DNA of 64,000 nucleotides from an uncultured Gemmatimonadales bacterium (GCA_963844035.1 CAWJMT010000035.1:1-64000), one strand, 5' to 3'; numbered from the stretch's first letter, positions 3,994-61,419 are shown. The notes: generated by a model from the sequence alone, not told the origin. Numbers and translations are program-made.

Positions 3994-5205
3994 TCATAAC
4001 CACCACATCCCGAAGGGCAGTGTCAGCAGCGTGACCGGCACGCCGACTTTGCAATACTGCCAGAAGGAAATCTCCACGCCCTGGCGCCGCGCGCCTTCGA
4101 GGACGATCAGGTTGGCGATCGATCCGACGAGCGTCAGGTTGCCGGCGAGTGTGCTCGACATGGCGAGCGTGAGCCACGACGTTGCCGGATCCGGCAGCTC
4201 CTGGACGAGTCGCGAGAGGAGCATGACGGCGGGTACGTTGCTGATGACATTCGAGACGATGGTCGTGACGGCGCTGAGGCCTGTCACCGTATGGAGTCCG
4301 ATCGGCGCCAGGAGATCAAAGAGTCGCCGGGCCAGGCCCACCTGTTCCACGCCGCCGATGACGACGAAGAGGCCGATGAACATGACGAGAAGATCCCAGT
4401 CGATCTGGCGGTAGATCTTCTGCGGGTTGACGCGCCGGGTGATAAGGAGCGCGGCGGCCGCGACGGCGGCGACAAGAGCCGGGTCCATCCCGAGAAGGAA
4501 CGCCGCGAGCACGAATGCCGTGACGAGCAGGCCCTTGATCGTCATCGCGCGGTGAATCGGGCGCGGCCGGGGACCGGCAGACTCGAGCGGGCCCGGCCGG
4601 AGGTCATCGCGGAACATCCACGTGAGGACCAGTGCGTCGAGCGCCAGTCCGAAGAGCGCAACCGGGCCGAGGGCCGAGAGGAACGGCGCGTAGCGGATGT
4701 GCGACAGGCTGGCGATGAGCATGTTCTGCGGATTGCCGGTGATCGTCGCGACGCTGCCGATGTTCGCGCCCGTGACCAGCGCGGGGAGGTAGGGCAGCGG
4801 CCGGTGTCCGCGCGCGCGGGCCAGTTCGATGAGTACGGGGGTAAAGACCAGGCAGATCGTGTCGTTGACGAAGAGGGCTGAGAGCATCCCGCTCACGAAG
4901 ACGACCGCGACGAGCAGCAGCGCCGGCTGGTGCACGCGGGCGCCGATCCATTGGACCGTGGCGCTGAAGAACCGCGCCATGCGCAGGTGCGCGATGAGCA
5001 CCATCATGCCGAAGAGCAGCACCAGCGTCCGGAAGTCGACGTGGTGGTACGCCTCGTCGAGCGTGATGACGCCGGTGGCGACCATCAGCGTCGCGCCGAC
5101 GATCGCGGCGCCCGGCCGGTCGATTCTCAGGTAGGGTGCGCGTCCGACGGCCAGGACGAGATAGGTGAAGAAGAGGATGGCGCCCGCGACGACCGGGAGG
5201 AGCAT
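3994..5205 (-). CDS. ArsB/NhaD-superfamily anion transporter
   Basis: RIDRPGAAIVG, LSALFVNDTICL, ANIGSVATITGNPQN, STLAGNLTLVGSIANLIV. Confidence 0.9.
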   Translation of the reverse strand: MLLPVVAGAILFFTYLVLAVGRAPYLRIDRPGAAIVGATLMVATGVITLDEAYHHVDFRTLVLLFGMMVLIAHLRMARFFSATVQWIGARVHQPALLLVAVVFVSGMLSALFVNDTICLVFTPVLIELARARGHRPLPYLPALVTGANIGSVATITGNPQNMLIASLSHIRYAPFLSALGPVALFGLALDALVLTWMFRDDLRPGPLESAGPRPRPIHRAMTIKGLLVTAFVLAAFLLGMDPALVAAVAAAALLITRRVNPQKIYRQIDWDLLVMFIGLFVVIGGVEQVGLARRLFDLLAPIGLHTVTGLSAVTTIVSNVISNVPAVMLLSRLVQELPDPATSWLTLAMSSTLAGNLTLVGSIANLIVLEGARRQGVEISFWQYCKVGVPVTLLTLPFGMWWL

Positions 5206-5384
5206 GCGGGGGGATCGTATATCGGCGACTGGGCCGGGTCGCGGCCGGTCCACCGAACGGACCGCGCCGGCCGTGGGTTTCCGGTCCCGGCGGTTGCGCG
5301 GGGTTTGGCCAATCCGCTAAACTTGGGGTTCTCTTGACGGTGGCCACGCCGTCCCTAGAAAACGAGCGGTTCTACGCTCTCTGT

Positions 5385-5459
5385 TCCTCGGTAGCTCAAC
5401 GGTAGAGCATCCGGCTGTTAACCGGAGGGTTGCTGGTTCGAATCCAGCCCGAGGAGCCA
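5385..5459 (+). tRNA. tRNA-Asn (GTT)
   Basis: Acceptor tcctcgg/ccgagga, D-arm tagctcaacggtagagc, anticodon arm ccggctGTTaaccgg, T-loop ggttcgaatcc, encoded CCA. Confidence 0.97.
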
Positions 5460-5569
5460 GCTCGCTAAAGCATGTAAAATCAACAACTTACGTGATGAGT
5501 ACGCAGACGAGTCGATAAGCTGTTGATCCTCAGTGACTTGCGGCGTCTGGGCCGCACTGGACGATTTCC

Positions 5570-5745
5570 GCAACTGGCTGCGATTGAACGAAGGTTCACG
5601 CCGTGAAAGCCGACGCCGCGAACCAACGCGGTGGCGACATCTTTCGCATGCTGGTCATCGCCGAGTATTGAGACTCGGTGGTTCGCGGAGCGTCTCCGCG
5701 AGTGGACGACGGCGGCGGGTGTGACGGGCCCAAAGGCGACCGCTC
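5570..5745 (-). pseudogene. Fragment of an NADPH-dependent F420 reductase-like oxidoreductase
   Basis: ILGDDQHAKDVATALVRGVGFHGVNLRSIAAS resembles the family C-terminus; N-terminal Rossmann fold absent. Confidence 0.45.
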
Positions 5746-5764
5746 GTTTTGCTCTTGCATCCAA

Positions 5765-5789
5765 TATGGATACTAATATAGTATCCATA
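5765..5789. promoter_or_regulatory. Palindromic operator upstream of Rrf2 gene
   Basis: Perfect 11-bp inverted repeat tatggatacta-ata-tagtatccata ending 1 nt before the ATG. Confidence 0.75.
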
Positions 5790-5790
5790 A

Positions 5791-6216
5791 ATGGCTTCCG
5801 TAAACACTCAATTTTCGATCGCCGTCCACGTACTGGCGGCAATCGCACATCACGAGGGAGTTTTCACGTCGGAAATTCTCGCAGGCAGCGTGAATGCGAA
5901 CCCGGTTTTCGTTAAGAGAATCCTCGTTAAACTCTCGAAGGCGAAGCTGGCTAAGACGACTGTTGGTAAGTCGGGTGGTTATGGCCTGGCACGAAGCCCA
6001 AAGAGTATTTCCCTCTTAGACATCTACTCTGCGGTAAACCCTCCAGATGCTTTTGCCATCCATGCCTATCCCAAAACGAAGGAGTGTGTCGTGAGCTGTA
6101 ACATCAAGGAAGTCATGAGCGACGTGCTGGTTGGCACTCAGGAGGCCGTCCGTAGGGATCTGAGGCAGACGACATTGGCGGACGTGGTGTCGAAAATCAG
6201 GGCCAGGTCCGGTTAG
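5791..6216 (+). CDS. Rrf2 family transcriptional regulator
   Basis: FSIAVHVL, TSEILAGSVNANPVFVKRIL, GKSGGYGLAR, ISLLDIY. Confidence 0.92.
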   Translation: MASVNTQFSIAVHVLAAIAHHEGVFTSEILAGSVNANPVFVKRILVKLSKAKLAKTTVGKSGGYGLARSPKSISLLDIYSAVNPPDAFAIHAYPKTKECVVSCNIKEVMSDVLVGTQEAVRRDLRQTTLADVVSKIRARSG

Positions 6217-8300: not shown

Positions 8301-8444
8301 ACCTAACAAGCGCTTGAAGCTGTCGAGCGCGAGAGTGGAAGTCATTGCAGTCGTGCCCGCCGCGTTTGATTGGACGGGACACCACCCCACCCTCCTTGCG
8401 CCGCAGCAGCCTGCGCTCGCAGCTTAAGCGCAACTCCGTTAGGC
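8301..8444 (+). repeat. attC site (complete)
   Basis: R'' acctaac, L'' gcttgaagctg, L' cagcttaagc, R' gttaggc. Confidence 0.9.
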
Positions 8445-8467
8445 GGCAACACAAGCCACTCGGTCCT

Positions 8468-8986
8468 ATGCTTCCGTATCGCAGGATGGTTTTCACTCTG
8501 CTGACAGCGGCGTCACTTACCGAGTGCCGCGAAGGCTTTGGGCCGATTCCGGACGCGCCTCCTCTGCAAGGGCCGCCCTTTCTCACGGCCGAAGTCAATG
8601 GTCAGCTGTGGGAACCAGGCACAGCACCGGGGCAGCTAGCCCTGTTCTTTGGGACTCATCGAATTGCGATTACCGCCGATCGTCCTCTGGCCGAGGCATC
8701 GAACGTCGAGCGACTGGAACTGGAGCTCGAGACCGTCGTCCCGCCGCAGCCGGGCTCCTACGTCCTGGATGCGGGGCCCAATGCGTTCGCAACCATGACC
8801 CTGTCCACCTACGGCCAGATGACTGCAATGTTCACAACTACCGCCCAGCACACCGGGACATTGGTCATCGCCGAAGTATCCTCGCTCGACAAATTGGTCA
8901 CGGGGGCCTTCCGGTTCGAGGCTATCAGTTTTGATGGTCGAACGGTTCGCCAGGTGCGCGGCGCATTCCGGCTCCGGTTTCCTTGA
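8468..8986 (+). CDS. Cassette-encoded hypothetical secreted/lipoprotein
   Basis: Single ORF between two attC sites; signal-like N-terminus, beta-rich (LTAEVNGQLW, VTGAFRFEA). Confidence 0.7.
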   Translation: MLPYRRMVFTLLTAASLTECREGFGPIPDAPPLQGPPFLTAEVNGQLWEPGTAPGQLALFFGTHRIAITADRPLAEASNVERLELELETVVPPQPGSYVLDAGPNAFATMTLSTYGQMTAMFTTTAQHTGTLVIAEVSSLDKLVTGAFRFEAISFDGRTVRQVRGAFRLRFP

Positions 8987-9005
8987 TGTTGACAGAACGG
9001 TTGCC

Positions 9006-9147
9006 GCCTAACAAGCGCGTGAAGCTGGCGGCGCGGCTTTTGGAGGTAGAATTGCGTTTGTGCGCCCGTCTGCATCTCTGTGGAGCGCTTGATCACCGGG
9101 GCGCCCGGCTGGACGGGGCGCCGCAGCTTACGCGCATTCCGTTAGGC
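9006..9147 (+). repeat. attC site (complete, main family)
   Basis: gcctaac-aagc-gcgtgaagctg ... cagcttacgc-gcattcc-gttaggc; extra G in L''. Confidence 0.93.
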
Positions 9148-9513
9148 GGCCGCTAAGACTCCGTAACCATCGACATCGAGGCACACGCCTCGATCGGCTG
9201 CTCTTCGTCGGCGCTCGTCGGCGCTCGATCGTCGGCGACTGGGCGCTTCGTCTACTGGCAATCTCGACGCATCAGGCTTCGGGGCCGGTGCTGCAGGATC
9301 GCGCTGCGGCTCGTCACTCTGATTGACTGCGGCGCTCACCGCTCGGAGCCGAAGACGCTGCCGTGTCGTCGCGGTGCTCCTCGGAGCGGTGACGGCTGGT
9401 CGCTGAGTTCCAGTGCTCTCGCTGGTCGGCTGGCACTGCGCTTGGCATACACGTCGCCGACTGGTGGCTGCGACATCGCGGACTGGATCGACCTTGCCGT
9501 CTGTGCAGCCGCC

Positions 9514-9654
9514 GTCTAACAAGCGCGTGAAGCTGCCGGCGCGGTCGCCGCGAGGTAGAATTGCGTTTGTGCGCCCGTGTTCATCTGTGTGGAGCTCGAT
9601 CACCGGGGCGCCCGGCGGGGCGGGGCGCCGCAGCTTACGCGCATTCCGTTAGGC
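9514..9654 (+). repeat. attC site (complete, main family)
   Basis: gtctaac ... gttaggc, near-identical to 9006-9147. Confidence 0.93.
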
Positions 9655-9674
9655 AGCACAGGCCGGAGGTCCAT

Positions 9675-10262
9675 ATGCATCACGTCGCGTGGTCCCGGGC
9701 CATCCGCATAGCACTCGCGATCGGCGTGTCGTCAGCGCTCCATGCCCAGACCGCTGCTCCGAGACGCGTGGCCATGCGCTTTCTCGTGGGTGCTGCAGTC
9801 CCGGTGGCACCCTCGCAGTTCCGCTCTGACTGGGCCCCGGGCTTCAACGCGCTTGCGTCCATTGGGTATCTGGTGTCGTCGCGTGTCGAGCTCGCAGTGG
9901 CCGTAGAGTACGGGTCCTTTGGGCCAGGGCATGCCCCCGCTGCACCAGCGCCACCTGCGGTGAAAACCACCCAATTCGCCACTCCGCTGTGGGGCGCCTG
10001 GCTCAACGGGGCCTTCACGGCGTCGTCGGCGCGTACGCGGCCACGCGTGCACCTTGGGGCGGGCGTCGTCGCTCATGGGGCGGCGCGCACCGCGCCCGCC
10101 GTCGAGATCGGAGTGGGTCTTGAGAGGTCGCTGGGCGCGCGGATCGGCGCGTATCTCGACGCCACGCTTGTGTACGCATTCACCACGGATCCAACGGGCC
10201 AAGCGACGATTGCCGAGGCGTTGTCGTACGCGCCGATCCGTCTGGGGTTCGTGTGGCGGTGA
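9675..10262 (+). CDS. Cassette-encoded outer-membrane beta-barrel-like protein
   Basis: GGAGG RBS, signal peptide (ALHAQ), C-terminal PIRLGFVWR. Confidence 0.65.
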   Translation: MHHVAWSRAIRIALAIGVSSALHAQTAAPRRVAMRFLVGAAVPVAPSQFRSDWAPGFNALASIGYLVSSRVELAVAVEYGSFGPGHAPAAPAPPAVKTTQFATPLWGAWLNGAFTASSARTRPRVHLGAGVVAHGAARTAPAVEIGVGLERSLGARIGAYLDATLVYAFTTDPTGQATIAEALSYAPIRLGFVWR

Positions 10263-10271
10263 CCTTGTGCT

Positions 10272-10374
10272 GCCTAACACGCGCTTGAAGCTGCCGGCGC
10301 CGTCTTAACTGTGGAGGCCATCCGTTTGTGAACGTTCAAGCATCGTGCGGCAGCTTAAGCGCAATCCGTTATGC
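10272..10374 (+). repeat. attC site (complete, short variant)
   Basis: gcctaac-acgc-gcttgaagctg ... cagcttaagc-gcaatcc-gttatgc. Confidence 0.88.
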
Positions 10375-10413
10375 GACCTGGTGGCGGCCACTGCGGCATC
10401 GATTGGAGGTAAT

Positions 10414-10989
10414 ATGACAAAGGACATGTTCCGTGACCGTGAGCGTGGCGAGGAGGCGGCCTATTTCCGTCAGCAGGATGCCAAGCTGATCGCGAAGCTA
10501 CGTCAGAAGGCCCAGTTGAGCGAGATTGCTCACGCGCTGGCGGAGAAACTTCACGCGGACGAACCGGCGCTTCTCGAGCGCATCCAGAAGCTCGGCGTCA
10601 CCCTCGACACGGGTTCGGCGTTCATCCTGGCGCCGCTGGTCGAAGTCGCCTGGGTCGATGGCAACGTCAGCCATGCCGAGCGTGACACCATTCTGAAAAT
10701 CGCGAGGCAACGCGGCGTGGCGCCGGGGTCTGCCGATCATCGTCAGCTTCTCGATTGGCTAGCCCACCGCCCATCCGACGAAGTCTTCCGGACGGCGTTG
10801 GAAGCGATCCGAATCGGCCTCTCCGTCCTTCCGCCCGACGAATTGGAACAACGGATCGCGGTCATGATCAAGGCGTGCGACGAGGTGGCGCAAGCTGCGG
10901 GCGGGATAGCCCAACTGCTCCACCTGGACGGAGTCTCATACGCGGAGAGCGCGGTGATCGCCGCGATCCGCCGCCATCTGGCAAAGTAG
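10414..10989 (+). CDS. Hypothetical protein, TerB-like fold possible
   Basis: GGAGG RBS; FRDRERGEEAAYF; LVEVAWVDGNVSHAERDTI. Confidence 0.7.
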   Translation: MTKDMFRDRERGEEAAYFRQQDAKLIAKLRQKAQLSEIAHALAEKLHADEPALLERIQKLGVTLDTGSAFILAPLVEVAWVDGNVSHAERDTILKIARQRGVAPGSADHRQLLDWLAHRPSDEVFRTALEAIRIGLSVLPPDELEQRIAVMIKACDEVAQAAGGIAQLLHLDGVSYAESAVIAAIRRHLAK

Positions 10990-11071
10990 GAAAACGGGCA
11001 TCAGGCTCGCAGGTCCGGCTGCAAAAGAGGTGTGAAAACAGACGGGCCGTCGACCATATCCAGGAGATCAC

Positions 11072-11626
11072 ATGAGGCTTGTACTCGTGTCCGTCGTGCT
11101 CTTCGGGGCGCTCTCTTGCTCGGATTCGTCCGGACCAGACATCCAGGGAAGCCTGTCGTTCACGTACACCGGCGCGGGAGGAGGAACGTTCAGCGCGTCG
11201 GGAGACGCGCCTTCCTTGACTGCGCCCCCGCCTGGAACGAGTTGGGCGGTGGGGTATGTGCAGGCAAGCGAGACTCACGTCGCCGGTTCCACGCCGCGGT
11301 CAGGTGTTCTTGTAGACCTCGCGATTCTCCGGCTCGAGCGCACGACCCCAGGCTCCGCAAGCGTCGACCTTGCGTGCGACCTCGACGGCAGCGCCAGCTG
11401 CACCGGAATGGAACTCCTTCTGAACTTCAACGGCAACGGCGACACGGGCGACTTCTTCTGCGGCTTGACGAGCGGAACGATCGTTCTCACGGAGGTAACC
11501 AGCAGCCGGGCCAAGGGCACGTTTTCGGGAAACGGCAATTGCATCGCCGGCACCGGAGGAACTTCCTCGGTGTTTTCGGTGAGCAATGGGGCGTTCGACG
11601 TCGCGTTGGTTGCGCCGCCCGGCTAG
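11072..11626 (+). CDS. Hypothetical lipoprotein
   Basis: AGGAG RBS, lipobox LSC, Gly/Ser/Cys-rich beta protein. Confidence 0.75.
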   Translation: MRLVLVSVVLFGALSCSDSSGPDIQGSLSFTYTGAGGGTFSASGDAPSLTAPPPGTSWAVGYVQASETHVAGSTPRSGVLVDLAILRLERTTPGSASVDLACDLDGSASCTGMELLLNFNGNGDTGDFFCGLTSGTIVLTEVTSSRAKGTFSGNGNCIAGTGGTSSVFSVSNGAFDVALVAPPG

Positions 11627-11641
11627 ATCAAGACCGTGGCG

Positions 11642-11668
11642 GCCTAACCGGCGCTTGGAACGGGCGGG
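11642..11668 (+). repeat. Truncated attC (left end only)
   Basis: gcctaac-cggc-gcttggaacgg 15 nt after a stop codon, cut off at the pomX-like stop. Confidence 0.55.
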
Positions 11669-12424
11669 CTAATGAGGTGGCGCGCGCCTCACCAGCGACT
11701 CAAGGGTCTCGAGCGCGGCGCCGGCCGCGGACAGGCGCTCCACTTCCGACGTGAGTTCCCGGCAACGTGCCTCGGCGCGCGCGCGACCAGATTGCGCCTC
11801 CTGCAGGCGCGTGTCCAGATCGGCCAGCTCTGCCTCCGCTTCTTGCAGCAGCGCCGCCCGGTCTTCGAGCCCGCGCAGTCCGGCGATCTCTTCGAGCACC
11901 TGGTCGCGTTCGGCGGCGAGCGCTTCTGCCTCGGCCACCGCCTCATCGGCGATCCGCCGCCGCTCCTCGGCCTGGGCCTCGAACGAGCCCCTAGCCCGGC
12001 GTTCCTTCTTCAGCTCGGCCTCGCCCCGGGCGAGCGCGGCGCGGGCCTCGTCCAGCTCCCCGGCCAGCCGGGACCGTTCCTCGATCGCGGACTCGAGCTT
12101 GGCGCGCAACAAGTCGATCAACTCCCGCACGGCCGCCGCGGTCTGCTGAGGCTCGGCCTCGCCGGCGGACCCGCGCGCGGTCGCCGCCAGTCGCTCCCGC
12201 AGCGACGCGGTCCGCTCCCGACCGCTCTTCCCGCGCGCGACGCGCGGGCTCGGTTGCGGAGTTGCCGGCGGAGGCGTGACGTCGGGCGTCGGCGCGAGGA
12301 CGACCGACTCGATACTGGTGGGCGGCGTCCCGTTTTCGGAGCCGGCCGTGAGCTCGGTGAGCACGCGGGAGATCGGCCGCGGCTTACGGGCTGGAACGTT
12401 GGCGTCGAAACCGCGTGTCGTCAC
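11669..12424 (-). CDS. pomX: PomX-like coiled-coil ATPase-activating protein
   Basis: GTG at 12424 overlaps the upstream TGA, with GGAG RBS; N-terminus RGFDANVPARKPR; Pro-rich linker; long C-terminal coiled coil. Confidence 0.7.
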   Translation of the reverse strand: MTTRGFDANVPARKPRPISRVLTELTAGSENGTPPTSIESVVLAPTPDVTPPPATPQPSPRVARGKSGRERTASLRERLAATARGSAGEAEPQQTAAAVRELIDLLRAKLESAIEERSRLAGELDEARAALARGEAELKKERRARGSFEAQAEERRRIADEAVAEAEALAAERDQVLEEIAGLRGLEDRAALLQEAEAELADLDTRLQEAQSGRARAEARCRELTSEVERLSAAGAALETLESLVRRAPPH

Positions 12425-13386
12425 GCGCTCTTCTCCATCGCGCGCTCGAGGCGCGCGCTGATCATCAGGCCGATGAGAGCGTCGATGTCCTTGGCGCCCT
12501 TGCACGATGGCGCGAAGGCATTGACGGGCAGGCCCTCGCTGGATGCCTGCGCGAACTGCGTGCATTGCCGCACGACCGCGTCCGACAGGAACTCGCGATA
12601 GTGCGTTTCCAGCGCCGCTTTTGCCTCGCGCGCGATCCTGGTCGTGGGGTTGTATTGATTGATGACGATCAGGATCCGCTGCAGCCGGTGGTTCAGATCG
12701 TCCTCGAGTTGGCCCAGGGTCTCGAACAGCAATTTGAGACCGTGAAACGACAGGAAATCCGGGAGCACCGGGACGAGCAAGTCATCGGAGGCCATCAACG
12801 CATTGAGGTTCAGGAGCCCGAAGGAGGGCGGGGCATCCATGACGATGAAATCGTAGCGATCAGACACTCGGGCGAGGGCCCGCTGGAGCTTGTACTCCCG
12901 CCCGGCCATCGGCATGAGACTGATGTCAATCGTCGTCATCCGCAGGTTGGCCGGGAGCACATCGAACTCCGCCAGCACTGTTCCCACGATCACGTCTTCG
13001 ATCGGGACCCCGCCGACCATCACGTCGAAGACCGTGCGCTCGAAATTCTCGCCGGCGAGGCCCAGATGCCGGGTCGCGTGCCCCTGCGAATCGAGGTCGA
13101 TCAAGAGCACCCGGTGGCCCATTTCTGCGAGCCGGTAGGCGTAGGCCACGGAAAGGCTGGTCTTGCCGGTGCCACCCTTGAAGTTCAGGAAGAGCTGGCG
13201 GCGCAGCGGCTCCCGGCCAGGGTAGCAACCCAACACTCTGCGGTACGCCGACAGGTGTCGCGGCTGGTAGGAGTCGGGTCCGCCGCCCAGCCGTTTCAGC
13301 TCGGCCAGTTTGTCGGCGTCGGTGAGCAGCGTGTCGGTGAGCCCCAGGAGCTTGGCAAAGTGCCTGCGCTGGTAGTGGATCTCCAC
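12421..13386 (-). CDS. pomZ: ParA/MinD ATPase, PomZ (AgmE)-like
   Basis: RRQLFLNFKGGTGKTSLS, VLLIDLDSQGHAT, LMPMAGREYKL, DAPPSFGLLNLNALMA, DFLSFHGLKLLFET, RQCTQFAQASSEG; ~60-aa N-terminal extension. Confidence 0.85.
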   Translation of the reverse strand: MEIHYQRRHFAKLLGLTDTLLTDADKLAELKRLGGGPDSYQPRHLSAYRRVLGCYPGREPLRRQLFLNFKGGTGKTSLSVAYAYRLAEMGHRVLLIDLDSQGHATRHLGLAGENFERTVFDVMVGGVPIEDVIVGTVLAEFDVLPANLRMTTIDISLMPMAGREYKLQRALARVSDRYDFIVMDAPPSFGLLNLNALMASDDLLVPVLPDFLSFHGLKLLFETLGQLEDDLNHRLQRILIVINQYNPTTRIAREAKAALETHYREFLSDAVVRQCTQFAQASSEGLPVNAFAPSCKGAKDIDALIGLMISARLERAMEKSA

Positions 13387-14513
13387 TAGGACGCTCGCTG
13401 CACGATGCCGGTCTCCGAGCGCCCGGGGTCTTGGGCGCGAAGGATCTGAAGGACGATGCGCCGCACCTGGGGGTCGGGATCACCGGTGAGCGGCTCGAGG
13501 AGCGGGCGCAGGGCCACCCCTCGCGCCGCGGCCGCGGCGAGCACCGCGCGGCGGCGAACGTGGGGGTTGGCGTCGGCGATCCCCCACCGGATGTGGGGCT
13601 CGAGCCGCACCGGGTCCCGTTGCAGCAGCCGGCCGAGCGCGTGGTACGCCGCGGCGCGCACGATCGGATCTTCTGCGGTGGCCCAAGGGCGAACGGCGTA
13701 GAACGCGTCGTCCCCGCCACGGCGGCCGAGACGGAGGAGCAGATCCACCTGGTCCTGTGGGCGCTCCGCCGCCGCCAGTGCCGCGACCAACCCGTCCGCA
13801 GGGGGACGCTCCGGCGTCACCGCGGCGGCAGCCGGCTCAGTGAGCTCCAGCATCTGTGGTGGGGTCGTCGCCTGGTCGAGCTGCTCGCGCAGGGCGGCCT
13901 CGCGGCGCTCTCCCAAGGCGTTGTCCCGTTCGAGGTCGAGGAGGGCGCGGCGCAGACTGCCGATGAACTCGGCAAGATCTACGGCTTCGGTGTCGCCGTG
14001 GCGCACGGAGCGTTGCCACTCGACCACCCGCGTGAGCAGGGTCTCGCGGGATGCCACCAGCTCGTCCACGCGCGCTCGCAGCTGCGAGGTCGTCTGTTCG
14101 CTGCCCGCGATACGCTCCCGGGCGGCAGCCGCTTCCCGCCGCAGGCGCACCAGCTCCTGCGCGTCGTCGCGCGCCTCTGACTCGAAGACATGTCCCTGCA
14201 GGTTGGCGCGCAGCGCCTCGGAGTGTTCCAGTCGCCGGTGTAGGGCGGCGACCTCCTCACGGGCCTGGGCGACCTCGCCCTGGAGCCGGCTGAGACGCTG
14301 AGTTTCGCCGACCTCACGCGCGGCGGCCTCGGCGAGGCGAACGCGGGCCAAGTCCGCCTCGGCGCGCGCCTCGTCGAGCGCGCCGCGCAATTGCTCCAGC
14401 CGGCACTCGAGCAGTACGGTCCGGTCCGAGCCGGCGGGCGGAGCCGAGCCCGCCGAGAGGCTGCCTCGACGCGGAGCCGTTACGCCTTCTCGCAGGGCAA
14501 GACCATGTATCAT
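13386..14513 (-). CDS. pomY: PomY-like coiled-coil + HEAT-repeat protein
   Basis: Long heptad region, then HEAT-like repeats (EDPIVRAAAYHALG, DANPHVRRRAV, DPDPQVRRIV); stop overlaps the pomZ start; exact start uncertain. Confidence 0.68.
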   Translation of the reverse strand: MIHGLALREGVTAPRRGSLSAGSAPPAGSDRTVLLECRLEQLRGALDEARAEADLARVRLAEAAAREVGETQRLSRLQGEVAQAREEVAALHRRLEHSEALRANLQGHVFESEARDDAQELVRLRREAAAARERIAGSEQTTSQLRARVDELVASRETLLTRVVEWQRSVRHGDTEAVDLAEFIGSLRRALLDLERDNALGERREAALREQLDQATTPPQMLELTEPAAAAVTPERPPADGLVAALAAAERPQDQVDLLLRLGRRGGDDAFYAVRPWATAEDPIVRAAAYHALGRLLQRDPVRLEPHIRWGIADANPHVRRRAVLAAAAARGVALRPLLEPLTGDPDPQVRRIVLQILRAQDPGRSETGIVQRAS

Positions 14514-14698
14514 CAGTATAGCAAAACGCGTCAGTCCGCGAAACCCATGAGGTCAAGTCAAGTCCCCTGAACCGGGCCCACCGGCCAGGTTTGGATTACT
14601 TGGTGCGGTGATCGCGCCAGCCGTCATATTCGGGGTGGCGACCCTTTGGCCCGTGGTTCTCGGCGGGCACGCTCGTTGACTCCTCCGGCGGTGGGGGA

Positions 14699-14840
14699 GC
14701 CTAACAAGCGCGTGAAGCTGTCGGCGCGGTCGCTTCGAGGTAGAATTGCAGTTGTGCGCCAGCGTATCATCTGTGAGCGGCTTGATCACCGGGGCGCCCG
14801 GCTGGACGGGGCGCCGCAGCTTACGCGCATTCCGTTAGGC
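14699..14840 (+). repeat. attC site (complete, main family)
   Basis: gcctaac ... cagcttacgcgcattccgttaggc. Confidence 0.93.
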
Positions 14841-14969
14841 AGCACACTCCAATCCTTGATGTTTACTTGACGGTGTCATGCAATGCTTCCGGGCACCTCG
14901 TTCGGAGCATTGCCCATGACTGCGAAGCGCGCTGTTCTCCCGCTTGGTTTAACTCGGCGGGCGGGTTGT

Positions 14970-14996
14970 CCGCGGCTCATGCGCGATCCGTTAGGC
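14970..14996 (+). repeat. attC remnant (right end)
   Basis: gcggctcatgcgcgatccgttaggc; continuation gttaggcagcg is complementary to cgctgcctaac at 15375. Confidence 0.7.
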
Positions 14997-15008
14997 AGCG
15001 GCCATACC

Positions 15009-15371
15009 ATGCGATCTCTAACCTTACTCGTGGCCAGTCTCGCCCTGCTTGCCCCGGTCTCTGCGTGCGGCGCCGGCTGGCAGCGACTACCGGCCGTCAC
15101 ACCCGGGGCTTTCGAGCCCCGTCAGCAGGTGCAGATTTGGCATGCCGGGACCGTCTCCCGCTGGCATGCTGTGGTGATCGGCCCCGACTCAATTTCCGGA
15201 ATTCCTTACTATAAGGTGGTGGACTGCGATAGCTGCCGCACTCGCGTACCTCGCAGCGTCGTGGACTCCATTCGCGTCGGGGATCCCGTCGCAGGGTTCT
15301 GGAAATCTGTCGGACTCACTCTTGGGCTCATGTTCGCCTTCTGTTACGCGACGTGCCCCAGGGGGGATTGA
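15009..15371 (+). CDS. Cassette-encoded hypothetical lipoprotein
   Basis: Signal peptide with SAC, CDSC motif, C-terminal TM; bounded by attC ends. Confidence 0.7.
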   Translation: MRSLTLLVASLALLAPVSACGAGWQRLPAVTPGAFEPRQQVQIWHAGTVSRWHAVVIGPDSISGIPYYKVVDCDSCRTRVPRSVVDSIRVGDPVAGFWKSVGLTLGLMFAFCYATCPRGD

Positions 15372-15378
15372 GGGCGCT

Positions 15379-15519
15379 GCCTAACAAGCGCGTGAAGCTA
15401 GCGGCGCGGCCTCTTCGAGGTAGAATTGCGTTTGTGCGCCAGTCTTTGTCTGTGTGGGACTTGATCACTCGGGCGCCCGGCGGGGCGCGGCGCCGCAGCT
15501 TACGCGCATTCCGCTAGAC
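15379..15519 (+). repeat. attC site (main family, core GTT mutated to GCT)
   Basis: gcctaac ... gcattcc-gctagac. Confidence 0.9.
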
Positions 15520-15539
15520 GGCGGCAAAGGGCGAGACCT

Positions 15540-16271
15540 GTGTCGAACGAGTTCGCGAACGTCTATCAGGATCAAGCTCGGGCCGACGCCTATGCGCAGC
15601 TCGAGTTTCCGGGTACCTACTTCCTAGCCTTTCGGGATCTGCCGACGCTGTTCCACGAGCACGTCCGTGGCCGGCTGGCACTCGACTTTGGCTGCGGGAC
15701 GGGGCGTTCGACGCGCTTCCTCCGGGGTCTCGGCTTCAGCCCTATCGGCGTGGACATTGCCGATTCAATGCTCGCTCGGGCGCGCGAGCTTGATCCGCGG
15801 GGTGAATACCGGCTGGTTGGGGATGGAGACTTGAGCGGACTGCCCGAGGCGACGTATGACCTCATTCTGTCAGCGTTCACGTTCGACAACATCCCGACGC
15901 TGGATCGGAAGGCAGCGTTGCTCGGAGCACTGCGGCTTCGCCTTAAGCCCTCGGGACGTCTGGTCAACCTCGTTTCAACACCCGACATCTACGTCCATGA
16001 GTGGGCCTCATTCTCCACGCGCGATTTCCCAGAGAACCGCTTGGCTAAGAGCGGGGGTCGCGTTCGCATAGTGATGTTGGATGTGGGTGATCGTCGGCCC
16101 GTCGAGGACATCGTTTGTTCAGACGAGGACTACGTGCGTCTGTATGCCGCCGCCGGGCTGGAGGTGGTCGCTAGGCACGACCCGCTGGGACAACCCACCG
16201 ATGGCATCGCCTGGGTCAGTGAGACAACGGTAGCGCCGTGGGCAATCTACGTCCTCGCGCGCGGTGCGTAA
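15540..16271 (+). CDS. Class I SAM-dependent methyltransferase (cassette)
   Basis: ALDFGCGTG, GVDIADSML, YDLILS. Confidence 0.9.
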   Translation: MSNEFANVYQDQARADAYAQLEFPGTYFLAFRDLPTLFHEHVRGRLALDFGCGTGRSTRFLRGLGFSPIGVDIADSMLARARELDPRGEYRLVGDGDLSGLPEATYDLILSAFTFDNIPTLDRKAALLGALRLRLKPSGRLVNLVSTPDIYVHEWASFSTRDFPENRLAKSGGRVRIVMLDVGDRRPVEDIVCSDEDYVRLYAAAGLEVVARHDPLGQPTDGIAWVSETTVAPWAIYVLARGA

Positions 16272-16286
16272 CACGCGCTTGCCGCC

Positions 16287-16427
16287 GTCTAACAAGCGCG
16301 TGAAGCTGGCGGCGCGTGCTCTTCGAGGTAGAATTGCGTTTGTGCCCCCGTCTCCATCTGTGGAGCGGTTGATCATCGGGGCGCCCGGCGGGGCGGGGCG
16401 CCGCAGCTTACGCGCAATCCGTTAGGT
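16287..16427 (+). repeat. attC site (complete, main family)
   Basis: gtctaac ... gcaatcc-gttaggt. Confidence 0.93.
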
Positions 16428-16447
16428 GCCTTTCCGAGGGTAACCCA

Positions 16448-17239
16448 TTGCAGGTAGCAAAGAAGCTCGTCCTCGTCACTGGCGCCTCATCTGGCATTGG
16501 AGCAGCCGTAGCTCACGGCATGGCCCGCCGTGGAGCGCGGCTCATTCTCGTGGCACGGGACCCTGCACGACTGTCGGCGGTTGCCAGAGAGCTCGCGTCC
16601 CTTCCGACCGAGGCCCACGTTTACGCTGCCGACCTCGCCGACCCGAAGGCTGTTGAAGCATTGGCCCACGACGTGAGCGCCCGGCACGGGACCCCCGATG
16701 TGTTGGTGAACAACGCGGGCGCTGGCCGCTGGCTCACGATCGAGGAAACATCTGCAGAGGAGCTCGAGCAGATGATGGCGGTGCCGTACTTTGCAGCATT
16801 CAACCTCACGCGTGCCTTCCTGCCGGGCATGCGGCGCCGGGGAACTGGCCACATCGTCAACGTCACCTCTGTGGCCAGTCGACTCGTGTGGCCAGGGGCT
16901 GCCGCGTATACGGCCGCGCGTCGTGCCGTCGTGGCGTTCTCTGAATCACTGCGCACTGAACTTGCGGGGACTGCCTTGAGGGTCACCGTCACCACCTTTG
17001 GCACCGTGTCAACACCCTACTGGGCCCACAATCCTGGAAGCGAGGACCGCCTCCCCCTCGCCGATCGATCAATACCACGGCTGACGGCCGAGGCGGCCGC
17101 AGAGGCTCTTTGCCGCGGCGTGGAGCGCGAGAGAGCCGAAGTCATCTTGCCTCGGCGCTTTCGGCTGCTGTTCCTTCTCAATGCCGTGGCTCCTAAGAGC
17201 ACGGCCCAGATACTTCGGCGGGGGTGGAAAGGCGCCTAA
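16448..17239 (+). CDS. SDR family oxidoreductase (cassette)
   Basis: VTGASSGIG, LVNNAG, YTAAR; TAA stop lies inside the attC R'' box. Confidence 0.9.
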   Translation: MQVAKKLVLVTGASSGIGAAVAHGMARRGARLILVARDPARLSAVARELASLPTEAHVYAADLADPKAVEALAHDVSARHGTPDVLVNNAGAGRWLTIEETSAEELEQMMAVPYFAAFNLTRAFLPGMRRRGTGHIVNVTSVASRLVWPGAAAYTAARRAVVAFSESLRTELAGTALRVTVTTFGTVSTPYWAHNPGSEDRLPLADRSIPRLTAEAAAEALCRGVERERAEVILPRRFRLLFLLNAVAPKSTAQILRRGWKGA

Positions 17240-17253
17240 CAAGCGCGTGAAGC
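17234..17253 (+). repeat. attC remnant (left end)
   Basis: gcctaacaagcgcgtgaagc, then similarity ends abruptly. Confidence 0.8.
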
Positions 17254-17339
17254 CTCCCTCAAGCCTCTTGGGCCTCTCTGCACTCCTGGGTCACCGAGCG
17301 TCGCGGTGAGGCGACGAACTCCGTGAAGAAACGAGGCCC

Positions 17340-18872
17340 GTGATGATCCGGCATCTGTCATACATCGTTCTTGTTCTGGTGCCGGCATGCACGCCGGACG
17401 TGGCACCCTCAGCGGCCGGGGACGCGGTCTTCTGTGCCACGATCCACCGAGACACGGCCGTTGGCCTGGCCCGGCAACTGCAGCCCGTGGAGTCCCTGAT
17501 GGCGCGTAAGACCGGCGCGTACGTGCTGGAGGACGGCGGCGGCGCCCTGATCGCACGCGCCTGGCTGAGCGAGTATGCCGACCACACTATCGACGTTCAG
17601 TATTTCATCTTCTCCGCGGACAACATTGGGCTCATTGCGGCAGACTATCTCGTCCGTGCGGCCGACCGGGGGGTCAGGGTTCGGGTGCTCGTGGACGACC
17701 TCCTGCTGGAGGCGGATGCCACGGTATTGCTGGCCCTCGACGCGCACCCGAATCTTGAGATCCGCATCTACAACCCCACTGTGAACATCGGGAAGAAGCT
17801 TCCGCGAAGGCTCTTCAACGTGATCACAGACTTCCGCGGAATCAACCAGCGGATGCACACCAAGACCTTTATCGTGGATGGACGCATCGTGATAACCGGG
17901 GGGCGGAACATCGCAGACGAGTATTTCGACTATGATCACGAGTATAACTTCCGCGACCGGGATGTTCTCCTCCTTGGCGGGGTCGCCACCCAGGTCGAGG
18001 CGGTCTTTGAGCAGTTCTGGAATGACGCGCTGAGCCGCCCGGTCGGGGAGCTGGTACACGCCTCGGCAGCGAATCGCCCCGATCCCGCTCGCCTCGAATG
18101 GCTGCATCAGTACGCGTGCAATCCTGCCAACTACTGGCCTCAGGTCCGGGAGCGGGTGAACAGTATTCCCGTTGCCTTTGAAGAGCTGCGGGCCTCCGGC
18201 AAGCTGCAGTGGCTCGACAGCGTGACCTACGTTGCCGATGTGCCCGGAAAGAACGATGGCAGTCGGGGTCTAGGAGGTGGCGGTGCCACGCTTGACGCCC
18301 TCATGGCTCTCGTGCAGCATGCCCACACTTCGGTCGCCATTCAGTCGCCTTACGTGGTCACGACGGACTTGGGTCGATCGGTCCTGCGCGACGCCGTCGA
18401 GCGCGGGGTCGAGGTCCGACTCCTCACGAACAGCCTGGCCTCGACGGATAACCTGGAGGCCTTCAGCGGCTATCAAAGGGATCGGGAGGCGCTGCTGCGA
18501 ACCGGCGTCCGCGTGTTCGAGTTCCGTCCCGACGCCGCCGAACGCGTGACGATCATGACGGGGGCACTGCCGCCGACGCTGACTCACCTACCCATCTTTG
18601 GCCTGCATGCCAAGTCCATGGTGATCGACCGACACATCACAGTGATCGGCACCTTCAACTTGGACCCGCGCAGCGCCAACCTCAACACGGAATGCATCAC
18701 GGTCATCTACTCGGACCGGATCGCGTCGGAGGTGCTGGCGGGAATGGAGGTGGAGTTCCGACCGGAGAACGCATGGGAGACTACGCTGAGTGCGAACCCC
18801 GATGCGCGCGCCGGCCTAATCAAGCGCATGAAGGCCTGGACTCGGCGCGTTGTACCCAAGAGCATACTGTAG
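17340..18872 (+). CDS. Phospholipase D family protein (ClsC/YmdC-like)
   Basis: Two HKD motifs: MHTKTFIVDG..GGRNIADEYF and LHAKSMVID..GTFNLDPRS. Confidence 0.92.
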   Translation: MMIRHLSYIVLVLVPACTPDVAPSAAGDAVFCATIHRDTAVGLARQLQPVESLMARKTGAYVLEDGGGALIARAWLSEYADHTIDVQYFIFSADNIGLIAADYLVRAADRGVRVRVLVDDLLLEADATVLLALDAHPNLEIRIYNPTVNIGKKLPRRLFNVITDFRGINQRMHTKTFIVDGRIVITGGRNIADEYFDYDHEYNFRDRDVLLLGGVATQVEAVFEQFWNDALSRPVGELVHASAANRPDPARLEWLHQYACNPANYWPQVRERVNSIPVAFEELRASGKLQWLDSVTYVADVPGKNDGSRGLGGGGATLDALMALVQHAHTSVAIQSPYVVTTDLGRSVLRDAVERGVEVRLLTNSLASTDNLEAFSGYQRDREALLRTGVRVFEFRPDAAERVTIMTGALPPTLTHLPIFGLHAKSMVIDRHITVIGTFNLDPRSANLNTECITVIYSDRIASEVLAGMEVEFRPENAWETTLSANPDARAGLIKRMKAWTRRVVPKSIL

Positions 18873-18884
18873 AGAGGCGCGCGC

Positions 18885-18972
18885 GCGTATCAAGCGCGTG
18901 AAGCTGCCGGCGCGGTCTCCGCGGGGTGGAATTGCGTTCTGTGCGTCCGTACTGCATCTGGTGGAGCGGTTG
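18885..18972 (+). repeat. Degenerate attC (left two-thirds)
   Basis: caagcgcgtgaagctgccggcgcgg...gaattgcgttctgtgcg...gtggagcggttg. Confidence 0.8.
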
Positions 18973-19369
18973 TGGTGAAATCGGGAGACAGCGCTGGTCT
19001 TGAGGGGGCAGTGGCGCCGAGCCGTCCCGGTTCGAGTTCGGGCCAGGGCATGTCTCGGAAGGTTATCCCCAGGTGGCGCTCAGGGGATGCCGCTTCCCAT
19101 CCTGTAGCCCCAATCGAAGCACACGCCAGCATTGGACGCGAAGCACTCGAACTGCGCGATGAGGACCGAGTAGTAGGGCGACGCATCAGTTGGTTGCCGA
19201 TACCGATTCCAGCCGGCGAACGGCTTGTCGGACCTCCAATAACACTCCGTGCCGTAGAGAGACGGATAGTAGGACACGAGCGCCCCGCCCGTCACGCAAG
19301 TTCCGAGATTGATGAAATTGACTAGCACGCTGCCAACGTTGTACATCGATGACCATCGGACGCGCACGG

Positions 19370-19535
19370 CGGAGGCAGATGTCCCGTCGCACACCTCGAA
19401 GGCTGCCCCGTTTTCACACGCCGCTCGTGAATCGGAGCGTGCGAAAGACCTCGACGGTGCCTCGGCATCGCGAGGTCGACGAGTTTCTGGCCCGCAAGAT
19501 CTGTCGCGATCTTGAAGTTCCTGAAGCGCTCCGAC
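19370..19535 (+). pseudogene. hicA: HicA-family toxin remnant
   Basis: VNRSVRKTSTVPRHREVDEFLARKICRDLEVPE; VAHLEGC in another frame; no intact N-terminus. Confidence 0.7.
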
Positions 19536-19662
19536 GCCTAACAAGCGCGTGAAGCTGGCGGCGCGGCCCTCACGAGGTAGAATTGCGTTTGTGCGCCCGT
19601 CTGCATCTGTGGATCGGTTGATCATCGGCGTGCCCGGCGGGGCGGGGCGCCGCAGCTTACGC
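19536..19662 (+). repeat. attC site lacking R' end (main family)
   Basis: gcctaacaagcgcgtgaagctg ... gcagcttacgc, no gttrrry. Confidence 0.88.
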
Positions 19663-19679
19663 CGCCTCTCGCGCGCCGC

Positions 19680-21993: not shown

Positions 21994-22293
21994 ATGCGCA
22001 AACTCATTGTCTGCAACATCATCTCGCTTGACGGCTGCTTTTCCGGCCCGGGTGGGAACGTCATGGTCATGCCGTTCGACAACGGCTTCTCGGATTACAA
22101 CGCGGAACGGCTCCGGGTCACGCTCTCTGGATGGTTCTTCCTCACGCTTGGACTCTTCCCCATGTTTGCCGTAGGACTTTGCCAACGAGGGCCCGGACAA
22201 ACGAGCGCGACCGTGTTCATGGTGCTGGAAGGTGTCTTGCTGGTCCTTGGACTGGTGATGACCTTCCAGGCTTATCGTCGCGAGGTTGTGTAG
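21994..22293 (+). pseudogene. Chimeric ORF: RibD-C/DHFR N-terminus fused to a membrane-protein tail
   Basis: MRKLIVCNIISLDGCFSGPGG..YNAERLR followed abruptly by two TM helices. Confidence 0.55.
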
Positions 22294-22313
22294 CAACCCA
22301 TCACGGAGCAATC

Positions 22314-23117
22314 ATGCGCTGGATCCCCGGTAGCCGAAGCGAAAACCTCGAGGACCGCCGCGGCCAACGATTCGGCGGTTTCGGCCGACTTGGTCTGGGA
22401 GGCGCGGTCATCGTCGTGGTTCTCAGCCTCGTGTTTGGGCGTGACTTCACCGGAATCTTGACTGACGGCGGGGAAGTCGGCTCCCAGTCCGCTCCGGACG
22501 GGTCCGCGGCACCAGTCCAGTCCACGCCCCAGGAAGAACGGCTCGTCGACTTCGTCTCGTTCGTGCTGGACAGCGCGCAGGCCACCTGGGCCCGGATCCT
22601 GCCGCAGCAAGGCGCCCGCTATCGCCCCGCGAAACTCGTGCTGTTCCGCGATGCGGTGCAGTCCGCCTGCGGGTTCGGCCAGGCCGCCAGTGGGCCGTTC
22701 TACTGTCCTGGCGACGAAAAGGTGTACATCGACCTCGGCTTCTTCGAGGAGCTCAAAACCCGCTTCGGCGCCCCTGGCGATTTTGCCCAGGCCTACGTTC
22801 TCGCCCATGAGCTCGGCCACCACGTCCAGAACCTGCGCGGCACCATGGGCGCGGCGCGCGACAACCAACAGTCCGTCCAGATCGAGCTGCAGGCCGACTG
22901 CCTTGCGGGCGTCTGGGGCTACCACGCGTCCCGGCAGAACCTGCTCGAGCCCGGTGACGTGGAAGAGGGCATGGGTGCCGCAGCGGCGGTCGGCGATGAT
23001 CGAGTGACCGGCGGCCGCGTGAGCCCCGAGAACTTCACCCACGGCTCGTCCGCCCAACGCATCGCCGCGTTCCGGCGCGGGCTCACGTCCGGCCGCGTAG
23101 CTGACTGCGGCCCCTAG
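22314..23117 (+). CDS. Neutral zinc metallopeptidase (YpfJ-like), copy 1
   Basis: SENLEDRRG, GPFYCPGD, YVLAHELGHHVQ, ELQADCLAG, FTHGSS. Confidence 0.92.
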   Translation: MRWIPGSRSENLEDRRGQRFGGFGRLGLGGAVIVVVLSLVFGRDFTGILTDGGEVGSQSAPDGSAAPVQSTPQEERLVDFVSFVLDSAQATWARILPQQGARYRPAKLVLFRDAVQSACGFGQAASGPFYCPGDEKVYIDLGFFEELKTRFGAPGDFAQAYVLAHELGHHVQNLRGTMGAARDNQQSVQIELQADCLAGVWGYHASRQNLLEPGDVEEGMGAAAAVGDDRVTGGRVSPENFTHGSSAQRIAAFRRGLTSGRVADCGP

Positions 23118-60490: not shown

Positions 60491-60555
60491 CGCGAACAAG
60501 CGCGTGAGCTGGCGGCGCGGCCGCCACGAGGTAGAATTGCGTTTGTGCGCCCGTC
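60491..60555 (+). repeat. Isolated attC remnant (main family, left half)
   Basis: aacaagcgcgtgagctggcggcgcggcc...gaggtagaattgcgtttgtgcgcccgtc. Confidence 0.85.
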
Positions 60556-60606
60556 GGCGCTACTCCGGTTACACTTGTTGCTCGAGACGTTTATCACGGA
60601 GCACAC

Positions 60607-61419
60607 ATGCGCTGGATTCCCGGTAGCCGAAGCGAAAACCTTGAGGACCGCCGCGGCCAACGCTTCGGCGGTTTTGGCCGACTTGGCCTGGGGGGCGCGG
60701 TCATCGTCGTGGTTCTCAGCCTCGTGTTTGGGCGTGACTTCACCGGAATCTTGACTGATGGTGGGGACGTCGGCTCCCAGTCCGCTCCGGACGGGTCCGC
60801 GCCACCAGTCCAGTCCACGCCCCAGGAAGAACGCCTCGTCGACTTCGTCTCGTTCGTGCTGGACAGCGCGCAGGCCACCTGGGCCCGGATCCTGCCTCAG
60901 GAAGGCGTCGGCTATCGCCCCGCGAAGCTGGTGCTGTTCCGCGATGCGGTGCAATCCGCCTGTGGGTTCGGCCAGGCAGCCAGTGGGCCGTTCTACTGCC
61001 CTGGCGACGAAAAGGTGTACATCGACCTCGGCTTCTTCGAGGAGCTCAAGACCCGCTTCGGTGCGCCTGGCGATTTTGCACAGGCCTACGTTCTCGCCCA
61101 TGAGCTCGGCCACCACGTCCAGAACCTGCGCGGCACCATGGGCGCGGTGCGCGACAACCAACAGTCGGTCCAGATCGAGCTACAGGCTGACTGCCTTGCG
61201 GGCGTCTGGGGCTACCACGCGTCACGGCAGAACCTGCTCGAGCCCGGTGACGTGGACGAGGGCCTGGGTGCCGCAGCGGCGGTCGGCGATGATCGAGTGC
61301 AGGGCATGTCGACGGGCCGCGTGAGCCCCGAGAACTTCACCCACGGGTCGTCCGCCCAACGCATCGCCGCGTTCCGGCGCGGGCTCACGTCCGGCCGCGT
61401 GGCTGACTGCGGCCCCTAG
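60607..61419 (+). CDS. Neutral zinc metallopeptidase (YpfJ-like), copy 2
   Basis: Near-identical to 22314-23117, 9 nt longer. Confidence 0.92.
   Translation: MRWIPGSRSENLEDRRGQRFGGFGRLGLGGAVIVVVLSLVFGRDFTGILTDGGDVGSQSAPDGSAPPVQSTPQEERLVDFVSFVLDSAQATWARILPQEGVGYRPAKLVLFRDAVQSACGFGQAASGPFYCPGDEKVYIDLGFFEELKTRFGAPGDFAQAYVLAHELGHHVQNLRGTMGAVRDNQQSVQIELQADCLAGVWGYHASRQNLLEPGDVDEGLGAAAAVGDDRVQGMSTGRVSPENFTHGSSAQRIAAFRRGLTSGRVADCGP

Follow-up and report, generated by a model that had tools for sequence, protein, structure and literature searches.

The window considered here comprises 64,000 nucleotides from an uncultured Gemmatimonadales bacterium (GCA_963844035.1 CAWJMT010000035.1:1-64000) and harbours three genes which resemble pomY, pomZ and pomX, the genes for the division-site positioning system PomXYZ of Myxococcus xanthus. 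A first-pass annotation made from the sequence alone had described a complete operon of this type; all three genes and their order have been recovered, whereas 'complete' does not hold for PomY, which is devoid of the C-terminal third of the M. xanthus version. Throughout, G000 designates the source genome (the host of the window), L numbers genome loci, G numbers other genomes and C numbers contigs. The operon and its upstream region are composed of the following features:

13386..14513, minus strand: pomY-like gene, 375 amino acids (aa); coiled coil and four HEAT repeats, without the C-terminal intrinsically disordered region (IDR), alpha5 and gD
12421..13386, minus strand: pomZ, 321-aa ParA/MinD ATPase; K70, G71, K75 and D99 intact, K268 equivalent is Q277
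11669..12424, minus strand: pomX-like gene, 251 aa; N-terminal activating peptide, proline-rich linker and coiled coil
14514..14596, minus strand: conserved upstream block (putative promoter); homology to relatives stops at 14544-14596 in 11 of 12 loci

The overlapping stop and start codons described earlier for the three minus-strand genes are indeed present, as the GTG start codon of pomZ has one base in common with the TAG stop codon of pomY and the pomZ/pomX junction is a GTGA overlap. Because the ratio of nonsynonymous to synonymous substitution rates (dN/dS) against eight relatives is 0.13-0.44 for all three genes, indicative of purifying selection, these open reading frames (ORFs) are real genes under selection. 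The order Y-Z-X is repeated in dozens of independent assemblies, with a Y-type ORF upstream of pomZ in 63 of 80 loci and an X-type ORF downstream in 68 of 80, the misses being mostly contig ends; these and the following genome-locus counts rest on the best 80 of 476 loci. A scan of the conserved upstream block (14514-14596) with the sigma-70 consensus retrieved no site. A -10-like hexamer within 14514-14545 lies immediately next to the first start codon of pomY; a normal promoter would be farther away, so that start and promoter are uncertain. Contigs from the RNA runs X11 and X19 span the operon with word shares below 0.2; contigs cannot show transcription.

Orthology and reduction of the Pom proteins

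Sequence comparison identifies all three genes as orthologues, albeit reduced, of their Myxococcus counterparts pomY, pomZ and pomX. Myxococcus-type references were obtained by searching 151 Myxococcaceae genomes with the published pomZ primer stretch, with 21 matching. The protein products of the reference locus L126 measure 682, 319 and 404 aa; those of 682 and 404 aa have the published lengths of PomY and PomX, respectively, and the PomZ carries all 24 residues named in PMC13170346, as does that of L121. Against the L121 protein, window PomZ shows 54% identity (169/311), while its identity to other ParA matches in five genomes amounts to 30-34%. Eighteen of the 24 M. xanthus residues are kept, four are changed conservatively (L146I, A147S, V229I, L242I) and two non-conservatively (E248A, K268Q). 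In the predicted PomX/PomY pocket, 16 of 21 residues are retained, compared with 6 of 21 in the chromosomal ParA of the host. By identity and pocket alike the ATPase is thus set apart from a generic Soj or plasmid ParA, and the ParA motifs quoted in the first-pass annotation are present. With chromosomal ParA/Soj of ParABS systems the protein shares the deviant Walker A ATPase fold; it differs by the low identity, the Pom-specific pocket residues and the lack of an adjacent parB or parS. That no parB or parS occurs nearby had been stated before, and the parAB-parS genes of the host have been located away from the pom operon on contigs C30 and C1. Those two parA-parB-parS loci (G000:C30:1477-3284 and G000:C1:99427-101237) are near-identical, with parA of C1 split by a frameshift, and possibly reflect strain mixing in the bin.

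A 63-aa N-terminal extension, helical in the structural model, precedes the ParA-family ATPase domain. No helix-turn-helix was reported by Pfam at the N-terminus of window PomZ, and a weak match only (E 0.02) in Myxococcus-type PomZ. The model itself is of low confidence, with a predicted local distance difference test score (pLDDT) of 65, below 50 at 273-299, and is unable to place the basic patch; a fold search with it returned only ParA/Soj/MinD proteins, with Soj/ParA as the best solved-structure matches. Q277, the equivalent of K268, aligns with R211 of Thermus Soj, an arginine that binds DNA. The equivalents of K241, K244, R264 and K287 remain basic, and a lysine or arginine has newly appeared at position 247 in 47 of 47 clade proteins and at position 290 in 20 of 22 close ones.

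PomY and PomX have been recognized predominantly by profile comparison. With hhalign, PomY matches the myxobacterial PomY profile at 99.55% (E 1.8e-23; cross-control 0.4%) and PomX the PomX profile at 96.5% (E 7.6e-10; cross-control 1.5%), which, together with the PomZ identity, substantiates the previously claimed match to pomY-pomZ-pomX; for PomX, profiles were required, as pairwise BLAST against the Myxococcus-type protein was not significant (E 0.6). Pfam detects HEAT repeats (HEAT_2), AAA_31/ParA and a coiled-coil-like match below the cut-off among the three ORFs. The proposed architecture of a coiled-coil protein with HEAT repeats, an extended ParA and a protein with basic peptide, proline linker and coiled coil is borne out. 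The PomY model (pLDDT 79.7) consists of a coiled coil at about 27-215, a linker and eight helices forming four HEAT repeats (239-361), whereupon the protein ends; its fold matches are HEAT/alphaRep proteins. In PomX, a basic N-terminal peptide is followed by a proline-rich linker (24% proline in 27-67) and the coiled coil. Residues F6, N9, V10, K14 and R16 of the peptide correspond, with an offset of one, to F5, N8, V9, K13 and R15 of M. xanthus; in M. xanthus numbering, V9 and P14 are found in 41 of 41 clade peptides, K13 in 40 and R15 in 37. K13 and R15 are needed for PomZ activation in M. xanthus (PMC7993993).

The window operon, with L126 representing M. xanthus, therefore shares with its myxobacterial counterpart the Y-Z-X order, the catalytic and most pocket residues of PomZ, the K13/R15 peptide, proline-rich linker and coiled coil of PomX, and the coiled coil, alpha1 motif and HEAT repeats of PomY. 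On the other hand, PomX has 251 instead of 404 aa, and PomY has 375 instead of 682 aa, four instead of seven HEAT repeats, a pI of 6.3 instead of 9.5 and a longer coiled coil, and lacks IDR, alpha5 and gD. The C-terminal IDR with alpha5 and gD constitutes the second ATPase activator, and the activator function of M. xanthus PomY has been mapped to 438-682 (PMC13170346). Since this part is absent from window PomY, only one ATPase activator is predicted for the window system. In 39 PomY proteins of the Gemmatimonadota/Gammaproteobacteria clade the tail spans 23-72 aa, whereas 12 proteins of Myxococcaceae type have tails of 151-281 aa with gD at their end. Further differences from M. xanthus are the loss of K268, the non-myxobacterial host and an accessory, laterally spreading occurrence, as opposed to the conservation of Pom in myxobacteria, where the proteins co-occur in Cystobacterineae (PMC7993993).

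Host, probable lateral spread and the attC cassette array

A Gemmatimonadota-like host, suggested earlier from the flanking core genes, is corroborated by the core block at 36-50 kb (trpB-like, trpS, purA, glyQS), which is syntenic at 72-85% with three genomes of the same genus and G677 and matches a Myxococcaceae genome in patches only. PomZ has been detected in 15 of 401 genomes of the phylum, including 11 of 166 in the family and one of the three others in the genus, and 41 of the best 80 genome loci carry Gemmatimonadota titles, with same-genus pom loci titled Gemmatimonadales. A joining of myxobacterial DNA to a Gemmatimonadales contig by assembly or binning, for which it can be said that the operon-to-flank junctions are bridged by none of the listed read-set contigs, is largely refuted and scarcely credible: the Gemmatimonadota loci form a distinct clade, the window is part of a 323-kb contig with genus-typical core genes, and pom contigs of relatives extend over 695 and 962 kb. 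With respect to a chimeric join, a concern raised at the outset, both internal junctions are bridged by contigs from other runs and the gene order recurs; it is the flanks that stay unbridged among the listed contigs.

In a quick PomZ tree, evaluated by Shimodaira-Hasegawa-like approximate likelihood ratio test (SH-aLRT) support only and covering 75 of the 80 loci, with five partial genes omitted, the Gemmatimonadota loci form a clade (SH-aLRT 99); one Deltaproteobacteria bin branches off basally, and six bins of Gammaproteobacteria are nested within the clade (99). A myxobacterial donor of the operon is plausible, and only plausible because the outgroup of this tree is very long. PomZ is encoded by 4 of 121 genomes of the Gammaproteobacteria order, and at one of the six loci the taxonomic label is supported by an adjacent FtsZ of Arenicellales type. 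The loci L036 (titled Gammaproteobacteria) and L044 (Deltaproteobacteria), with pomZ 84-85% identical and Gemmatimonadales-type attC, fall inside the Gemmatimonadales clade; they may be mis-binned or very recent transfers and have not been counted as transfers.

Sequence divergence indicates that the operon has likely moved between species recently, because synonymous divergence (dS) of the pom genes is far below that of core genes and the distribution is patchy. Compared with G034 of the same genus, pom dS is 0.17-0.19 and that of eight core genes 0.74-1.41; in 13 of 13 genome pairs with both types of genes, pom dS is 0.14-0.54 versus core dS of 0.59-1.81 (purA being the only core gene in five pairs), and between the genera g9 and g3 purA reaches 1.81 and pomZ 0.19. 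On a quick tree with 34 rows, approximately unbiased (AU) tests speak against monophyly, which is rejected both for Gemmatimonadota (p 0.018) and for genus g3 (p 0.008); these p values are optimistic, both groups having been picked after the first tree. The horizontal movement considered in the first-pass annotation is accordingly supported by dS and AU tests. GC content at third codon positions (GC3) is alike in pom and core genes. The edges of pom homology are sharp, at about 11650-11690 and 14545-14595, with differing neighbours between lineages, and upstream of trpB in G034 neither an attC match nor pom is present, so that the pom site is not conserved. In this comparison of the site, synteny by tblastx was mostly high-GC noise and was rejected as evidence.

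An attC array around the operon, which had been missed by the first-pass annotation, comprises:

8301..19674, plus strand: attC cassette array, eight full sites, no adjacent integrase
14699..14840, plus strand: complete attC of 142 bp on the promoter side; covariance model (CM) score 102.9 bits (the site was in the training set)
11642..11661, plus strand: 5' half attC abutting the pomX stop codon, recognized by sequence; no full hairpin
10272..10374, plus strand: nearest complete attC on the pomX side, supported by CM and hairpin

The site at 14699-14840 begins 186 bp from the pomY start; its bottom strand folds into a hairpin (z -2.5) in which the R and L boxes are paired and extrahelical bases are present. 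Together with the site at 10272-10374 it bounds a 4.5-kb segment containing two plus-strand ORFs and the pom operon, which is inverted relative to the array. A ninth attC is located near 60.5 kb, and decayed sites occur as far as about 29.4 kb and at 60491-60677. The variable region of the window follows a tRNA-Asn (5385-5459). As the first extrahelical base G is usual in attC sites; on the bottom strand of the window sites it is C. The host encodes IntI at G000:C10:44679-45617, above the TIGR02249 cut-off, with an attC of the window family 2.5 kb away; no IntI was found within any pom locus.

Of the 24 close loci (82% identity or more), 9 have matches to a hidden Markov model (HMM) built from the window attC sites alone, in each case on the strand that does not encode pom, as against 0 of the 56 other loci; this zero partly reflects the family-specific attC sequence, although a generic scan also found almost nothing in them. 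Seven close loci on metagenome contigs extend at least 3 kb downstream, and five of these have attC matches, two of them weak. The association of attC with pom exceeds chance, because attC, with 0-85 matches per genome (lower bounds), covers an estimated few percent of the genome only; kin are not independent. The operon is associated with attC arrays in the Gemmatimonadales family. On their promoter side, the four basal copies (window, L029, L030, L031) have an attC or attC-like site no more than about 250 bp away, while the non-basal copies have attC on the pomX side only, or none: in L039 a full attC is separated from the pomX stop by about 65 bp and L036 has a weaker one, both without a promoter-side site. 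L029 and L030 possess half-sites like that at 11642-11661 in the corresponding place. An intact recombination core directly at the pomX end of the window unit is absent, and none of the pom loci examined showed a clean cassette intact at both ends. That the operon is a true integrase-mobilized cassette is a tentative proposal, with the odds against it. In the occurrence of attC after plus-strand ORFs, an integrase located elsewhere and a self-promoted multi-gene insert, the locus resembles clusters of attC sites lacking integrases (CALIN) and sedentary chromosomal integron arrays (PMC8618304), from which it differs by an insert consisting of a three-gene 2.9-kb cell-cycle operon and by the attC half-site on the pomX side.

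Cargo, mechanism and rival explanations

The reading we favour, with a probability of roughly 0.55, is that of a mobile reduced Pom module which, with PomX as the only activator, would position and nucleate the FtsZ ring. PomX as sole activator is predicted from the absence of the second activator located in the PomY tail. By orthology, PomX would polymerize through its coiled coil into one scaffold, on which the coiled-coil-HEAT PomY may condense and recruit FtsZ. The latter step finds a parallel in the matching CC-HEAT truncation of M. xanthus PomY, which forms condensates on PomX and mostly colocalizes with constrictions, the coiled coil being required for clusters at constrictions (PMC10307791). 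By way of a basic patch that has been rearranged, ATP-bound PomZ dimers would anchor the cluster on the nucleoid; this is the weakest step, as K268 is lost. Finally, the N-terminal peptide of PomX alone would stimulate ATP hydrolysis and drive the cluster to midcell, with conservation of peptide and pocket observed and the activity predicted.

The choice of FtsZ relies mainly on the argument that the cargo should be universal. No recurrent gene family was found beside the operon across lineages (52 loci clustered, 85 neighbours scanned), and because the operon is kept in many contexts and in two phyla without an accompanying cargo gene, the cargo is probably something each recipient already has. 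The host carries ftsA-ftsZ, with ftsZ on contig C3 (L128:1480-2646). At one Gammaproteobacteria locus, L062 (G651:C29), a stand-alone ftsZ without ftsA (4794-6008, minus strand) is divergent from pomY and, relative to L051, inserted between a MerR-family gene and pom. This Arenicellales-type ftsZ, with a 29-aa N-terminal extension, is the only one found in the 2.5-Mb bin; its product is 72-78% identical to the FtsZ of the relatives' dcw clusters and has three close relatives of 404-405 aa. MinC has no match in the host (84% complete) and occurs in 0 of 151 family genomes; in the Gammaproteobacteria order, pom (4/121) and MinC (6/121) do not overlap, which is uninformative as to an anticorrelation.

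Several observations weigh against this interpretation. Lack of MinC extends across phylum and order and thus does not set pom carriers apart. With 386 of 401 phylum genomes, including two of the three of the same genus, lacking a PomZ match, Pom is dispensable for division, and in cultured Gemmatimonadota devoid of Pom, division nonetheless occurs mostly at midcell (PMC11271474). An ftsZ adjoins pom in 1 of 80 genome loci and in 0 of 80 metagenome loci, many of which are short. Full complementation is achieved by none of the PomY truncations in M. xanthus (PMC10307791). Equally, none of the 22 close sequences has a basic residue at the position of K268 (11 Q, 5 E, 6 D), whereas one is present in 6 of the 25 clade members at greater distance and in 31 of the 33 remaining sequences, and the K268E substitution lowers DNA binding of M. 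xanthus PomZ (PMC13170346).

That the nucleoid-guided positioner has been kept, with another cargo common to all hosts such as a storage granule or protein aggregate, is unlikely on balance, even though patchy distribution and dispensability of the module, the loss of the PomY tail and three HEAT repeats, and the many cargos positioned by ParA/MinD systems (PMC13170346) would fit. No candidate cargo gene accompanies the operon, the PomY coiled coil is not only kept but longer, and one ftsZ neighbour (L062) exists. The residue at the K268 position, non-basic throughout the 22 closest sequences and, in 11 of them, acidic as in the K268E mutant, could alternatively signify that PomX and PomY nucleate FtsZ while nucleoid binding by PomZ is largely lost and positioning is weak or achieved otherwise, for example by nucleoid exclusion. 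The four retained basic equivalents and the new residues at 247 and 290, the conserved catalytic and PomX-pocket residues and the K/R268 kept in 6 of 25 more distant clade members make such a loss distinctly unlikely.

A selfish or array-stabilizing unit that partitions mobile DNA, be it an excised circle or the cassette array, comparable to inverted toxin-antitoxin cassettes, might be suspected from the placement of the operon, inverted within the attC array and equipped with an upstream block of its own, from recent lateral spread and from the helical N-terminal extension on the ATPase. A parB-like or DNA-binding partner is missing, the winged-helix gD is lost and copies outside the Gemmatimonadales family show no attC link; moreover, PomZ-type genes were retrieved neither from plasmid collections (none at 1e-40) nor from phage collections (generic ParA only) nor from viral contigs (best full-length match 35%), so that we regard this option as very improbable. 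The favoured single-activator PomXYZ placing the FtsZ ring can be extended to a minimal system moved by IntI as array cargo in Gemmatimonadales and crossed into Gammaproteobacteria; taken as a whole, this extended scenario is doubtful.

PomXYZ has been described as a system of myxobacteria. Cultured Gemmatimonadota are reported to be without Min, MipZ, PomZ, MapZ and SsgAB (PMC11271474), and no published report of a mobile Pom system in Gemmatimonadota was found in the library searched. A natural Pom system without PomY tail and K268 offers a test of which parts of the machine are needed, and bears on why M. xanthus has two activators and whether condensates alone recruit FtsZ. Its compactness (2.9 kb) and the fact that it has spread between genera and beyond the phylum suggest an ability to function with foreign FtsZ. 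If true, Pom would be a portable division-site tool, a plug-in mobile gene set operating in unrelated hosts, with division-site selection as an exchangeable trait and the positioning system as a swappable accessory in a phylum reported without one.

Minor observations

A protein search at the level of 50% clusters added more distant homologues only. Distant PomZ-like proteins (P0129, P0131, P0133, P0135, P0143, P0145) display 38-49% identity, one of them being assigned by name to Candidatus Riflebacteria. At L059 (Gemmatimonadota), a tRNA-like sequence is situated about 150 bp beyond the pomX stop. Neutral zinc metallopeptidase genes are present in the window at 22131-23117 and 60607-61419, the second of which adjoins an attC remnant.

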